From: a virus
Virus record (IMG/VR): IMGVR_UViG_3300032284_002783
Location: 1 to 64,000 of that record
Direction: 5' to 3' (one strand)
Length of the DNA stretch: 64,000 bases
Position numbers and translations under genes: made by a program. The notes beneath the pieces are model-generated. The model saw nothing but the letters and a program-made list of their open reading frames with translations. It searched no databases and was not told the origin of the DNA. Shown piece by piece: positions 14,504 to 49,324 of the stretch (position 1 is the stretch's first letter; every line of letters starts with the position of its first letter).

Positions 14504-14650
14504 ATGAAACTACTAGTATTTCTTATATTATTGGCAATTTTGTTTGTTCTGTTTCCAGCTAAAGTTTTAGCAGCTATAATTTTAATTAGTTCTGGATTTT
14601 TATCGCTGGCTATTTTGGTATTTGTGCTAATTGCTTGTCTTCTTGGATAA
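14504..14650 (+). CDS. Small hydrophobic membrane peptide (48 aa)
   Basis: AAGGA RBS; MKLLVFLILLAILFVLFPAKVLAAIILISSGFLSLAILVFVLIACLLG; below the ORF-track cutoff. Confidence 0.6.
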   Translation: MKLLVFLILLAILFVLFPAKVLAAIILISSGFLSLAILVFVLIACLLG

Positions 14651-14660
14651 TAAAAAAAAT

Positions 14661-14964
14661 GTGCATGTGGTGATTTTGCATCTTCGGTTCAGTTGCGAAC
14701 GATAGACATCAAACAGCTTGCCATGCTTACTTCTATCTGGCCATTATTTCAGACCTGCGCTTTTTCCCAATCACCTCAGGGAAGAACCATAAGACATGAG
14801 CTAGACTCTATACATGCTGTGTGTATGGTTTTCCAATGCTCATCCGGCTTCTTCCTTACCGCGCTGGATTTTAACATGCACTATGATTTCAGCGTCTATG
14901 TTCACAGCAACATGTCAACTTACGTCATGCTTTATACTAGCAAATGTTAACTGATCAGTCTAGC
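14661..14964. ncRNA. Unassigned, multiply pseudoknotted structured RNA candidate (about 300 nt)
   Basis: GC-richer intergenic segment with at least six perfect 6-8 bp complementary pairs, several crossing; strand uncertain (minus favoured by downstream U-run). Confidence 0.55.
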
Positions 14965-15064
14965 GGATTTGTTTGAAATAATTATGTCAAAATATTAATA
15001 AATAATAATGCAGTTCGCGGAATTGGCGTTCCCAACTGCTCTATAACTCAGGAGAATTACAGCA

Positions 15065-15625
15065 ATGTCTAATATTTATTATGTATATGCATATATAAGA
15101 ACTAAAAACTCAGCAACTGCTAACGCAGGTACACCATATTATATTGGTAAAGGTAAAAATCGTCGTGCATGGGAAAAGCATATAGTACCACGGCCAATAG
15201 ACAAAAATTATATAGTTATTGTGGAATCAAATTTAACTGAAGTTGGCGCACTTGCATTAGAGCGCAGATTAATAAAATGGTATGGCGGGAAAGATTTAGA
15301 AACAGGTATATTACTTAATAGGACAGATGGCGGCGATGGCGGATCTAATATTGTTTATGAAAGGACATTAGAGCATAAACAGAATCTGTCAAATGCATTG
15401 AAAGGCAAACCAAAATCTAATGAAATGAAAAAGAAATTGTCCATTACAAACACAGGACGAAAACTATCAGAATCTACGAGGAAGAAAATATCAGAGAATA
15501 ACAAAAACAGGGTATTATCTGACGAAGTATTAGCTAAGCTTAAAATGCCAAGATCTGATGATATAAAAAGAAAAATATCAGAGTCGGTTAAAAACTCTTA
15601 TCGTTTAAGAAGATTAAAACACTGA
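15065..15625 (+). mobile_element. Free-standing GIY-YIG homing endonuclease with NUMOD3-like repeats
   Basis: YYVYAY...[18 protein letters not shown], repeated (H/T)K.KISE modules; TAAATA and AGGAG upstream. Confidence 0.85.
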
Positions 15626-16529
15626 GATTACATGTTTTACATTAGTACCTTGAGGATTATTATGAGTCTTGCGAACTCGTTTCCCTCAACATCCACTGTC
15701 CCCTCATATTGTGAGACAGTCTACTAACAATGTCGCCTTTTTTAAGGTCAGGCAGTAGACCTTTCATGCAGTGCTACTCTACAACTTTTGCACCGTTAGC
15801 CTTGCGAGCTATTCGAGAGCGCTAACCCTCTACGACACATCTGTTACAGACCAACTCCACCTTGCGAGTTTTGTTGGGCTTGGTTCTCTTACGAGCCAAG
15901 CATTAGACATCTTTCACACTACACAGGGCCAGGCTTTGCGTTTTTGTAATCGAAAGTTGGACTTGAACCAACATACGACTGCTTGGAATGCAGTTGCCTA
16001 AACCATTCGGCTATATCGTTTGAACCTACTGTGATGTGCTGGCCCTGTTGCTGCATACCTTGTTAGATACACAATACAACACACCACCTGTATTTCGTCT
16101 TGCAGACTACTTTACCGTTTACCTGGACACTGTCTAGCCTTACGAGCTAGCCAATCCCCTCAAAACTGCCAACCGCCCTTGGCTGCAAAGCCTCGAACTT
16201 GTTTGACTATCCATTATCTATCAGCATTCTGTTGGTTTGCGTGCAAAGGTGATACTTGCGGTATCTTACTCCTCACCGATTGGCTCTGGAGCACATCCTT
16301 TCGGACCTTTACCCAACTGTCCTGCTTACCACCCCTTTCGGATGGCTCCTTTCGGAGCAGACTGGACTTGCATAGTGGACCCTATTGCTAGGTGCTGGTA
16401 GGTAGGCCTTCCAGCTTTGGGTCAGTTGCCTGACTTATTCCATTAATGGCGCTATGCCGCCAATGCTTATTTTACATTTTATAGAACAAAAACTTTGCAC
16501 ATTCGCTTGCGCTTGTGTGCGCCGTCTAT
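15616..16529 (-). ncRNA. GOLLD-like giant ornate RNA (about 900 nt)
   Basis: No credible ORF; about a dozen GNRA-capped hairpins on the minus strand; 3' end CAGUGGAUG..GAGGGAAA..AAUAAUCCUC..UGUAAUCUCAG resembles the GOLLD 3' domain as recalled; own sigma70 promoter. Confidence 0.75.
15948..16020 (-). tRNA. Degenerate tRNA-Gly(UCC)-like domain embedded in the GOLLD-like RNA
   Basis: D arm GCCGAAUGGUUUAGGC, anticodon arm ACUGC-AUUCCAA-GCAGU, T arm GUUGG-UUCAAGU-CCAAC; acceptor stem has two mismatches and no CCA. Confidence 0.6.
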
Positions 16530-16535
16530 GTAGCT

Positions 16536-16564
16536 AATATACAGAGCTTGACCAGCGCTGTCAA
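16536..16564 (-). promoter_or_regulatory. Sigma70-type promoter for the GOLLD-like RNA
   Basis: TTGACA-17 nt-TATATT. Confidence 0.8.
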
Positions 16565-31127: not shown

Positions 31128-31145
31128 AAACTACTAAAAACTTAC

Positions 31146-31176
31146 AAAAAAAGCTAGCTGAAAAGCTAGCTTTTTT
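31146..31176. terminator. Bidirectional intrinsic terminator
   Basis: AAAAAAGCTAGC-TGAAAA-GCTAGCTTTTTT. Confidence 0.8.
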
Positions 31177-31179
31177 CTT

Positions 31180-31413
31180 ATCGTAGGCTGCTCAATGTCA
31201 GCTTGTGGAGCTTTTCCAACAGTTACTTTGGATTCTTATCTTCACCGTATCAGGTTGTCATCTTCGGTGAATAGTTGGTTGTGTCCCTTTAACGATGTCC
31301 GGTACTCCGATCCGCTCAACCCTGCACGTTGCTCTCACTCACACTTTATAAGGTCTGATTAATAAATCGCCTTACACCCTGTACGTCTGCGTGTCTATCC
31401 ACGCCGCTACGAT
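31180..31413 (-). ncRNA. Unassigned tRNA-like structured RNA (about 234 nt)
   Basis: Ends pair AUCGUAG/CUACGAU; D-like hairpin GCGUG-GAUAGA-CACGC; T-like hairpin GCUG-ACAUUGAG-CAGC; TATTAATA 5 nt upstream, terminator downstream. Confidence 0.6.
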
Positions 31414-31443
31414 ATGTATATTAATACATAACAGTTTGAAAAA

Positions 31444-39709: not shown

Positions 39710-39877
39710 ATGGGCAAACCAAATTTTATAAAAGGTAAGACCGCATGGAACAAAGGAAAAAATAATCCTAATGCTGCCGAAAACGGTAAAAAAGGAGCAT
39801 TATTACAATCTATCAAGGTCATTGGTCGAAAACGAAAATATAATGATGACGGTACATGGTCATGGTATTACCCATAA
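39710..39877 (+). pseudogene. Remnant of homing endonuclease DNA-binding tail
   Basis: 55 aa KGKTAWNKGK..GRKRKY.DDGTWSW; no nuclease domain upstream. Confidence 0.5.
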
Positions 39878-39880
39878 TAA

Positions 39881-39908
39881 AATAAGGGAGCATTAATGCT
39901 CCCTTATT
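39881..39908. terminator. Intrinsic terminator after tmRNA
   Basis: AATAAGGGAGCA-TTAA-TGCTCCCTTATT. Confidence 0.8.
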
Positions 39909-40220
39909 TGATCTTTTCTGTTTCTAAGAAGACCGATCTCAATCTTAGGCTACTGCCTGAAGAAACGGAGCATTATCATTTGCTGCGTTTATTGTTTTTG
40001 ATCTATAAAGCGATCATCCTGCTATCTACTTCAATACCTTCAGCGCCAATCGATCCCAGTTATCCCCCATCAAAAGCACAGCCCGCTTTGCCTTTTCAGC
40101 TTATCCAAAAAACGACCTAGCATGTTTGCAACCATGTTATCCAGGCGTCTGTGCTTGTGGTGGAGGATTGGGGAGTTGAACCCCAGTCTTGATCACCTAT
40201 ATATTGCTATCAACAACAGC
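39909..40220 (-). ncRNA. ssrA: Two-piece (circularly permuted) tmRNA
   Basis: Acceptor piece with T arm and AUCCUCC-A-CCA (ends 40158); intervening segment; coding piece starts GGGGGAU (40068) giving G3:U70; tag (A)ANDNAPFLQAVA* at 39945-39986. Confidence 0.92.
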
Positions 40221-40225
40221 TAGTA

Positions 40226-40233
40226 TATTTATA
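40226..40233 (-). promoter_or_regulatory. T4-type late promoter for tmRNA
   Basis: Exact TATAAATA. Confidence 0.75.
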
Positions 40234-40258
40234 ACACAGATTTTTTAAAAATCAAGAC

Positions 40259-48155: not shown

Positions 48156-48488
48156 TCATGTTGACCAAGGTAAAGAAGGAATAGAGTACTTTGCTTCTTT
48201 CTGTGCAGCAATGTTATCAGCAAGCTGTTGTTGATTAGCTTGAGTTTGCTCAGGTGTCCACGATGCTAATATCCAGTTTATAACCTGTTCTTCGGTTAGA
48301 TTAGAATACGGAATGAATGAGTTGCCTGGTACGTAGGTAAGAAATGTATAACCGCGAGGATTTATTGCTGTATAGATGCCGTCTGTTGCTGTGTAAGACC
48401 AGTAAACCTTAACAGCTACATTTTGCTGTCCATTTTCATTTGCGGCTACAACCATTGATGTTGGTTTGAGTGTATAAGTAATAGACAT
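48156..48488 (-). CDS. Tail-fibre-associated small protein
   Basis: TAATG-coupled start MSITY; FIPYSNLTEEQVINWI...LPW motif typical of fibre-adjacent phage genes. Confidence 0.6.
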   Translation of the reverse strand: MSITYTLKPTSMVVAANENGQQNVAVKVYWSYTATDGIYTAINPRGYTFLTYVPGNSFIPYSNLTEEQVINWILASWTPEQTQANQQQLADNIAAQKEAKYSIPSLPWST

Positions 48489-49300
48489 TAGCTTATTCTC
48501 CACGACATTATTGTAGTATATGACGGTTGTCCAGGCGAAGACCCTTCCCACGATCCATTTGAAACGATAAACACAAATTGATTGTATCCTGTTGCATCGA
48601 GGTAAGAGCCTGCTTTTGCAGCCTTATAAAGTATTTGGAAATTTACACCATCATAACTAAATCCATATGATATGTTAGTTCCATCATCTGTGATCTGTAC
48701 CCAAGTTGGATATACTGGAAAAGCAGAATAATAAGTCTGCCTAACATTATTATGATAGTTGTTTATATCAGACAACTGTTGAATCAAATAATATCCCTGA
48801 CTGTTTGCAGCCATTGAGAACAGCATATACTCAATTTTGTTTGATGCAGAATCACGCCAACCAAGACCAAAGTCGTGAAATGAATTTGGATCAGATGATG
48901 TTGCGATCAATGCTGTTGCGGTATAAGGAGCAGAAGGAACTTATGCCGTATATAATGCATGATTCTGTCCCAATGGATTTTGATCGTTAACAATCATAGT
49001 AACACCTGCAGCATTGTCAGTTACTAATGCAGTACCTTGGTTTAGCCAATTGGTGAAACCGGTATTAGCTTGTGTAGGTACAGTAAGTGACATTGCCTGT
49101 GCAAAAAGTCCATTGCTGCTAGCCGCAGCTGGTCCTGTGGGACCAGAGGCGCCCGTTGGTCCTGTGATACCAGTAGGACCGGTGGCTCCTACACCAGTAG
49201 GGCCCGTTGTGCCTGCTGACCCTGCAGCACCTGCCGGGCCGGTTGGACCTGTGCCTCCGGAACCTACCGGACCGGTTGGACCTGTATTACCAACTGTTAA
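48488..49300 (-). pseudogene. Collagen-repeat tail fibre C-terminal part; no start codon and an in-frame TAA
   Basis: GPTG repeats continue in frame via HALYTA*VPSAPY (TAA at 48941-48943) into ORF 48488..48910. Confidence 0.6.
49130..49292 (-). repeat. Collagen-like Gly-X-Y repeat
   Basis: [54 protein letters not shown]. Confidence 0.85.
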
Positions 49301-49324
49301 TGATTGTTACCAAGATCAATAATA

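Follow-up and report, generated by a model that had tools for sequence, protein, structure and literature searches.

A GC-enriched non-coding block beside the GOLLD RNA of a large T4-like freshwater phage and the homing endonuclease gene lying between them

Does the stretch of about 300 nt that adjoins the GOLLD RNA of a large T4-like freshwater phage form a structured RNA of its own, and, if not, how is it best explained? The question was raised by a reading of the bare sequence, which placed a compact, ribozyme-like RNA with several pseudoknots at positions 14661–14964. The DNA analyzed here, referred to below as the window, comprises the first 64 kb (64,000 nt) of the IMG/VR record IMGVR_UViG_3300032284_002783. 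The record is 76.7 kb long, and its completeness of 18% (CheckV) indicates that only part of a very large phage genome is represented. The T4-like gene set of the window includes topoisomerase II subunits, class I ribonucleotide reductase, and a DnaB-type helicase, and pieces resembling the tail-sheath gp18 and the capsid gp23 were also found.

The stretch lies next to GOLLD, as the original prediction stated. The Rfam model RF02032 was matched on the minus strand at 15619–16087 with 202.6 bits, an interval corresponding to the GOLLD linker and conserved 3′ domain; because model positions 1–416 of 416 all fall within it, the neighboring block is not a missing part of GOLLD. A tRNA-Gly (UCC) is encoded inside the linker at 15946–16021 on the same strand (ARAGORN; Rfam tRNA model, 51.2 bits). 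The variable 5′ domain and the promoter occupy 16088–16564, also on the minus strand, according to a promoter scan, RNA contigs, and nhmmer. The promoter is near-consensus (TTGACA-17-TATATT at 16564–16536, 11 of 12 matches), and the 5′ domain showed nhmmer similarity to the 5′ domains of loci L098 and L100. The structure of the GOLLD 14-mer nanocage has been solved, and its function is unknown. In the solved structure, the 833-nt RNA terminates in the conserved 3′ region (10.1101/2024.12.08.627333). On the other side of the block, a 48-codon hydrophobic ORF from the ORF list (14504–14650, plus strand) has a gene-like codon score (0.24) and GC3 (0.16) and is the last member of an upstream plus-strand gene island convergent with GOLLD. 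The flanking proteins of 171 and 176 aa had no relatives in IMG/VR, and a search of JGI metagenomes with the 176-aa protein gave two weak, unrelated loci only. Relatives of the block itself were recognized at 88–94% identity in three sequencing runs (X2, X4, and X6) and on one JGI contig. The data from the runs are contigs (Logan) placed on the window, from which strand, ends, and absence are not readable.

All six perfect complementary pairs from which the fold had been constructed are present in the sequence. Helix A pairs 14661–14668 with 14874–14881, B pairs 14669–14675 with 14769–14775, C pairs 14702–14707 with 14894–14899, D pairs 14800–14807 with 14957–14964, E pairs 14785–14791 with 14824–14830, and F pairs 14796–14801 with 14838–14843. 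The two local hairpins (TTCCC/GGGAA and CGCTG/CAGCG) were found as well. Together, helices A–F pair only 82 of the 304 nt, and other helices are crossed by C, D, and F. Bases 14800–14801 are claimed by both D and F, and the 3′ arm of D (14957–14964) falls outside the block common to an endonuclease-free relative, the alignment of which ends at 14944. The number of inverted pairs in 14661–14964 was 22 at k = 6 against 12.2 in dinucleotide shuffles (observed count reached in 11 of 500), 9 against 3.2 at k = 7 (15 of 500), and 2 against 0.76 at k = 8 (90 of 500, not significant). The 304-nt windows of the genome itself are a fairer null than shuffles, and the observed counts at k = 6, 7, and 8 were matched by 27%, 16%, and 38% of such windows in the same phage. 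GOLLD is a proven structured RNA; four 304-nt pieces of it contained fewer perfect pairs at k = 6 and k = 7, and one had three at k = 8. Perfect complementarities of 6–8 nt in a 300-nt stretch of this genome are uninformative.

A fold energy lower than that of shuffled sequence was not seen for the block on either strand. The MFE z-scores were +0.26 (plus strand) and +0.13 (minus strand) for 14661–14964 and −0.96 and −0.23, respectively, for 14651–15064. All ten 120-nt sub-windows of the stretch had z above −1.2, and the 3′ domain of GOLLD, taken as a control, gave −1.70. In the MFE fold of the plus strand, 14701–14706 paired with 14732–14737 instead of forming helix C, alternative partners being easily found. 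Two substitutions in X2 (14735 A>G and 14737 C>T) preserve this MFE stem through G-U pairs, which could be read in favor of a folded plus-strand RNA; however, the stem is not among helices A–F. The Rfam searches were in line with the statement that the RNA could not be matched to a class and gave no assignment for the stretch. With Rfam 15 at gathering thresholds, no match was obtained in 14640–15064. At E ≤ 10 (351 nt given), the only three matches scored 14.6–16.3 bits against gathering scores of 40–115 and belonged to eukaryotic snoRNA and miRNA families and a Brucella sRNA. With E up to 10 allowed, none of the ribozyme or intron models of Rfam matched the block. The block and GOLLD are not complementary to each other over any extended length, and a 21-nt direct repeat with 81% identity (14676–14696 and 16409–16429) is within chance.

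With pair counts ordinary for the genome and no signal in the fold energy, the multi-pseudoknot, ribozyme-like fold is unsupported. A plus-strand RNA of about 300 nt folded through helices A–F is very improbable, even though the pairs and hairpins exist, their counts at k = 6 and 7 modestly exceed those of dinucleotide shuffles, and the block encodes no protein and has changed little between relatives. In addition to the low paired fraction, the conflict between D and F, and the position of the D arm, the plus strand is pyrimidine-rich, opposite to the GOLLD and tmRNA transcripts. The helices are chance-level complementarities and form no part of the explanation preferred below. The outcome is negative for the claim of a ribozyme, and 14661–14964 does not belong on a list of ribozyme candidates.

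The stretch also contains a plus-strand frame free of stop codons over 98 codons (stop to stop, 14654–14950), of which 85 codons follow a TTG (14693–14950) that has no Shine-Dalgarno sequence. A stop-free run of 98 codons was reached in just 2% of shuffles of the stretch, and three of the five X2 substitutions in 14718–14747 fall on third positions of the frame, as would be expected of a small protein gene; the frame nevertheless lies on the pyrimidine-rich strand, where composition makes stop codons rarer. Its codon score of −0.11 (genes, 0.44 ± 0.13) is below those of all 86-codon chunks of real genes (mean 0.44, minimum 0.004), and its GC3 is 0.49 versus 0.28 in genes. Searches of Pfam and PHROG gave no family match for the frame. 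When 1.84 billion representatives were searched exhaustively with phmmer, only three sequences were returned: P0001, the repeat artefact P0002, and P0003, a weak match spread over several stretches. P0002 was rejected as a protein relative, its score having accumulated from one weak match that recurs throughout a repeat protein. Word searches with shorter ORFs and with the other frame revealed no protein relatives, and the back-translated 98-codon frame had no match in IMG/VR or in GTDB genomes.

The relatives show that the frame is broken repeatedly. P0001, an ORF of 58 residues, comes from a close relative represented by a JGI contig of 1018 nt; it follows the frame of the window as far as ...CAFS and then the next frame to the stop of that frame, which indicates one extra base in the C-run near 14765–14767. 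The same relative has an A-run of six at 14652–14659, where the window has eight. Comparison of 14717–14747 with the loose end of the X2 contig implies one base fewer in X2 near 14745–14749, and gaps occur in the X6 and X4 contig pieces over the block. Homopolymer runs in the block vary in length among relatives. Non-synonymous variants were found at 14724 and 14727, the former site displaying all four bases (T in the window, A in X6 and X4, C implied by P0001, and G in X2). As the reading frame is not conserved, the block at 14651–14944 is non-coding, and the ORF at 14693–14950, the conservation of which had been left as a question by the original prediction, was judged not to be a gene. The protein-gene reading, whether of 85 or of 98 codons, is largely refuted and hardly credible.

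The composition of the block is like that of an RNA gene. Its core has a GC content of 0.43, and the whole gap has 0.40. Among the 17 ORF-free gaps of at least 80 nt in the window, most have a GC content of 0.19–0.31 and three have 0.34–0.38; the four that reach 0.40 are GOLLD (0.45), the permuted tmRNA (0.40), the gap with the block (0.40), and 31128–31443 (0.41). The GC and AT skews of the block have the same sign as those of GOLLD, with C exceeding G on the plus strand (GC skew of about −0.2 over 14700–14899), and purines prevail on the minus strand, as they do in the GOLLD and tmRNA transcripts. The GC content and skews thus favor an RNA-like element on the minus strand, that of GOLLD, and not on the plus strand for which the fold had been proposed.

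The block is separated from GOLLD by a free-standing GIY-YIG/NUMOD3 homing endonuclease gene at 15065–15625 on the plus strand. Its product matched Pfam NUMOD3 (5.3e-05) and phrog_314, annotated as 'homing endonuclease' (1.1e-14); a GIY...YIG motif is visible in the translation, while for the GIY-YIG model of Pfam no match at E 0.01 was obtained. The catalytic motif, the NUMOD module, and presence/absence among relatives were all found. The stop codon of the gene is located inside the last 7 nt of GOLLD, the TGA being part of the GOLLD terminal ...CUCAGUGU read on the opposite strand. A group I intron housing the endonuclease was considered and rejected, as no intron model matched and no interrupted gene was seen.

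The original prediction also suggested that the stretch had adjoined GOLLD before the endonuclease was inserted, and this is borne out in DNA by a contig from another study (X2 record 1, 1434 nt). The contig covers 14748–14944 and 15708–16604, with 168 letters between 14944 and 15708 versus 763 in the window. About 89 of the 168 letters are expected to be the GOLLD 3′ end of X2 with its variable hairpin, which leaves about 80 nt; the junction lengths indicate that, in endonuclease-free relatives, a spacer of about 80 nt separates the 3′ end of GOLLD from the block. The X2 relative is without the endonuclease gene, and the net insertion in the window phage is 595 nt, that is, the 561-nt ORF and little more. 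Because the endonuclease ORF ends in the GOLLD terminus and X2 is without the gene, the insertion point is placed exactly at the end of GOLLD, which suggests the conserved 3′ terminus of GOLLD as a candidate homing target.

Between the block and the gene are an AT-rich junction (14945–14997), which does not align to the endonuclease-free relative and contains the 3′ arm of helix D, and the upstream part of the endonuclease cassette (14998–15064, plus strand) with a conserved motif, a hairpin, and a ribosome-binding site. About 20–30 nt starting at 14998, 67 nt upstream of the endonuclease start, match three loci (L121, L122, and L123) of the jumbo phage G001 (360 kb). The motif precedes a paralogue of the endonuclease (36–44% identical) in L122 and L123, and L121 gave no tblastn match. 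Its position upstream of paralogues in two of the three loci assigns the motif to the mobile cassette, for which it (14998–15030) probably serves as promoter or as a regulatory hairpin.

Free-standing GIY-YIG (Seg-type) homing endonucleases occur in the RNA-gene region of T4-like phages, and T4 segB, for example, is found within the tRNA cluster, next to small stable RNAs C and D. The window cassette resembles the segB type in being a GIY-YIG/NUMOD3 gene among stable-RNA genes of a T4-like phage, present in some relatives and absent from others. It differs in that it abuts the GOLLD 3′ terminus and separates GOLLD from an uncharacterized non-coding block. The insertion at the GOLLD terminus is a clean natural presence/absence polymorphism, which could help to show whether GOLLD depends on the sequence downstream of it.

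The block diverges less among relatives than the flanking genes do. In X6, divergence was 6–7% in the block, 3–7% in GOLLD, and 16–20% in flanking genes (contig pieces of similar depth), and in X2 it was 8.6%, 6.9%, and 14% (adjacent gene), respectively. Across the metagenomic relatives, the ranges were 6–9% for the block, 3–7% for GOLLD, and 14–20% for flanking genes. The left edge of the low-divergence tract lies at about 14748 in X2 and at or before 14685 in X6; since the X2 segment 14718–14747 is already about 17–20% diverged, the edges of the low-divergence block differ between relatives. Such a pattern of edges would fit recombination as well as selection.

Beyond these relatives, blastn against GenBank phages gave no match to the stretch, and IMG/VR contained no match to exact patterns taken from the block or from the 5′ domain of GOLLD. 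A 20-mer had only two chance matches in GTDB genomes (Desulfovibrio and Oscillospiraceae MAGs). For a comparison with other GOLLD loci, a pattern for the GOLLD 3′ end gave 119 loci in IMG/VR, in 56 of which GOLLD was recognized by an iterated nhmmer profile; 52 loci had enough downstream sequence, and none of them showed similarity to the block downstream of GOLLD. The nearest GOLLD phages examined (G001–G003) have only GOLLD in common with the window, their flanks being non-syntenic, and no copy of the block was found anywhere in their records. The block thus appears to be confined to a narrow clade of close relatives.

Alternatively, the block may be a neutral hitch-hiker without a function of its own, with low divergence and raised GC content resulting from a recent exchange of GOLLD together with its flank, for instance by endonuclease-started gene conversion between co-infecting phages, or it may be a decaying remnant of something formerly located after GOLLD, such as a tRNA island or a gene. 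We regard this as somewhat unlikely. In favor of this reading, the tract of low divergence takes in GOLLD together with the block, divergence increases to either side of the tract, the position of its left edge varies, and a mobile endonuclease is situated in its middle; the four-base site at 14724, the homopolymer indels, the want of a fold signal and of deeper homologues, and the tRNA genes found in the same slot at other GOLLD loci are also consistent with it. A neutral origin is less easily reconciled with the GC content of the block, which stands at 0.43 against 0.19–0.31 in most spacers of the phage, with its persistence at 8.6% divergence in the endonuclease-free relative, and with an RNA-library contig that covers the block, none being found for most neighboring genes. 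Neither was any remnant of a tRNA found. No tRNA was detected in the block by ARAGORN with default settings or -ps80, the tRNA model of Rfam likewise gave no match with E up to 10 allowed, and a decayed tRNA array was rejected because no tRNA-like element is detectable even at relaxed thresholds.

The block is present in one aquatic RNA library. A 179-nt contig of X4 (record 7; depth 7.6, about 12% diverged) covers 14739–14902, and similarly diverged GOLLD variants occur in the same run at depths of 22–77. Most flanking genes had no contig in X4, a weak hint only, as contigs show presence and not absence. The contig over the block is a hint of expression only, with strand and ends not given by contigs. 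GOLLD itself is covered at 15608–16475 by RNA-library contigs from aquatic metatranscriptomes at summed depths of hundreds to thousands. These abundant contigs stop near 15608–15731, and the depth over the block is about 1% or less of the total GOLLD depth. RNA contigs of GOLLD (15608–16475) and of the block (14739–14902) are separate, although contigs cannot show transcript ends. The promoter and terminator scan found neither for a minus-strand unit over the block. In a single study, four aquatic metatranscriptome runs contained GOLLD and several variants at very high abundance (contig depths summing to as much as about 6,600), with an RNA cover of about 870 nt that is consistent with full length including the variable 5′ domain.

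The explanation that we tentatively prefer, while not calling it probable, is that the block is a clade-restricted non-coding segment of the GOLLD locus, expressed, as a trailer or as a small RNA, from the strand of GOLLD, maintained under some constraint, and cut off from GOLLD by the endonuclease cassette. In endonuclease-free relatives, the block starts about 80 nt beyond the 3′ end of GOLLD, and in the window phage the two are separated by the inserted GIY-YIG cassette (net about 595 nt), which sits exactly at the conserved 3′ terminus of GOLLD. The block would most likely be transcribed from the minus strand; it would be either a trailer, made when transcription from the strong GOLLD promoter reads through, or a clade-specific small RNA, and its high GC content and slow divergence would reflect the importance of the RNA or of the DNA. 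It resembles GOLLD in its adjoining position, in GC content and skews, and in its similarly low divergence among relatives; it differs in lying beyond the 3′ end of the RF02032 model, in having no fold-energy signal, and in not being conserved across GOLLD-bearing phages (52 loci and G001–G003). Counting against this explanation are the last two of these differences, the ending of the GOLLD RNA contigs near 15608–15731, the block depth of about 1% or less, the lack of a minus-strand promoter or terminator in the scan, the four-base site at 14724, the variable homopolymers, and the differing tract edges.

A more specific proposal, which is distinctly unlikely, would make the block a previously undescribed clade-restricted ncRNA of the GOLLD strand that functions with the GOLLD nanocage, its unit having been split by the homing endonuclease. 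Such an RNA would be, for example, a cargo or partner processed from a common precursor with GOLLD. Elements linked to GOLLD, such as tRNAs in the linker or just downstream, are clues to its cargo or partners, and a low-divergence non-coding block in the same slot that also occurs in an RNA library would be one more candidate partner, in a narrow clade and without a demonstrated fold.

In endonuclease-free relatives, the block lies between the last plus-strand ORF (stop at 14650) and the 3′ end of the minus-strand GOLLD, and it might serve as a zone of termination or insulation between them, its unstructured, C-rich and G-poor plus-strand RNA acting as a rut-like loading site for Rho. It would then end the plus-strand operon before antisense transcription into GOLLD, stop read-through from GOLLD, or both. 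Such a role, which we consider improbable, agrees with the excess of C over G on the plus strand (skew of about −0.2 over 14700–14899), a fold no better than random, and the A8/T8 run at 14652–14659. However, the intrinsic terminator scan found none in 14651–15064 on either strand, the T8 run (minus strand, 14659–14652) being preceded by a 4-bp stem only, and the excess of C over G is the mirror of a G-rich minus strand, as in GOLLD itself. Rho dependence is not readable from sequence.

At the 52 GOLLD loci compared, the distance from the GOLLD 3′ end to the next ORF had a median of about 120 nt, and a quarter of the loci had 350–560 nt of ORF-free, GC-raised sequence after GOLLD. Many of these ORF-free stretches are tRNA genes on the GOLLD strand (ARAGORN). 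A tRNA-Met follows the GOLLD 3′ end at about 21 nt (17–27) on the GOLLD strand in at least 9 of the 52 loci, and arrays of three to four tRNAs follow it in L098 and L027. These findings agree with a published description of GOLLD as 'often near tRNA islands' and as an RNA whose linker may contain tRNAs (bioRxiv 10.1101/2024.12.08.627333). The block shares with these tRNA genes and islands an ORF-free, GC-enriched character and a place directly after the GOLLD 3′ end, and probably also the strand; it differs in having no detectable cloverleaf and no similarity to any of the downstream stretches. It is thus located in the 'tRNA slot' of GOLLD without being tRNA-like. What remains of the locus is a modestly interesting uncharacterized non-coding neighbor of GOLLD and a clean endonuclease insertion at the GOLLD 3′ terminus.

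Several further observations were made at these loci and in the window. The loci with tRNA-Met are L033, L035, L064, L068, L077, L081, L102, L105, and L109 (and L040), and the spacing between GOLLD and tRNA-Met is strikingly fixed across many unrelated IMG/VR contigs. In L022, L045, and L063, ARAGORN reported 'tRNA-???' elements with abnormal anticodon loops 11–17 nt after GOLLD, and BLAST revealed a second related copy about 180 nt further on; these elements may be tRNA mimics or pseudo-tRNAs linked to GOLLD. L056 carries a phage tmRNA gene about 160–556 nt after GOLLD on the opposite strand, and the permuted tmRNA of the window phage is located at 39854–40251. The 316-nt ORF-free gap at 31128–31443 (GC 0.41) is the only other RNA-gene-like gap of the window and had no Rfam match at gathering thresholds. 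The highest GC content of the window, 0.52–0.55 against a mean of 0.37, was found at 48900–49300, around the ORFs 48488–48910 (minus strand) and 49014–49322 (plus strand).
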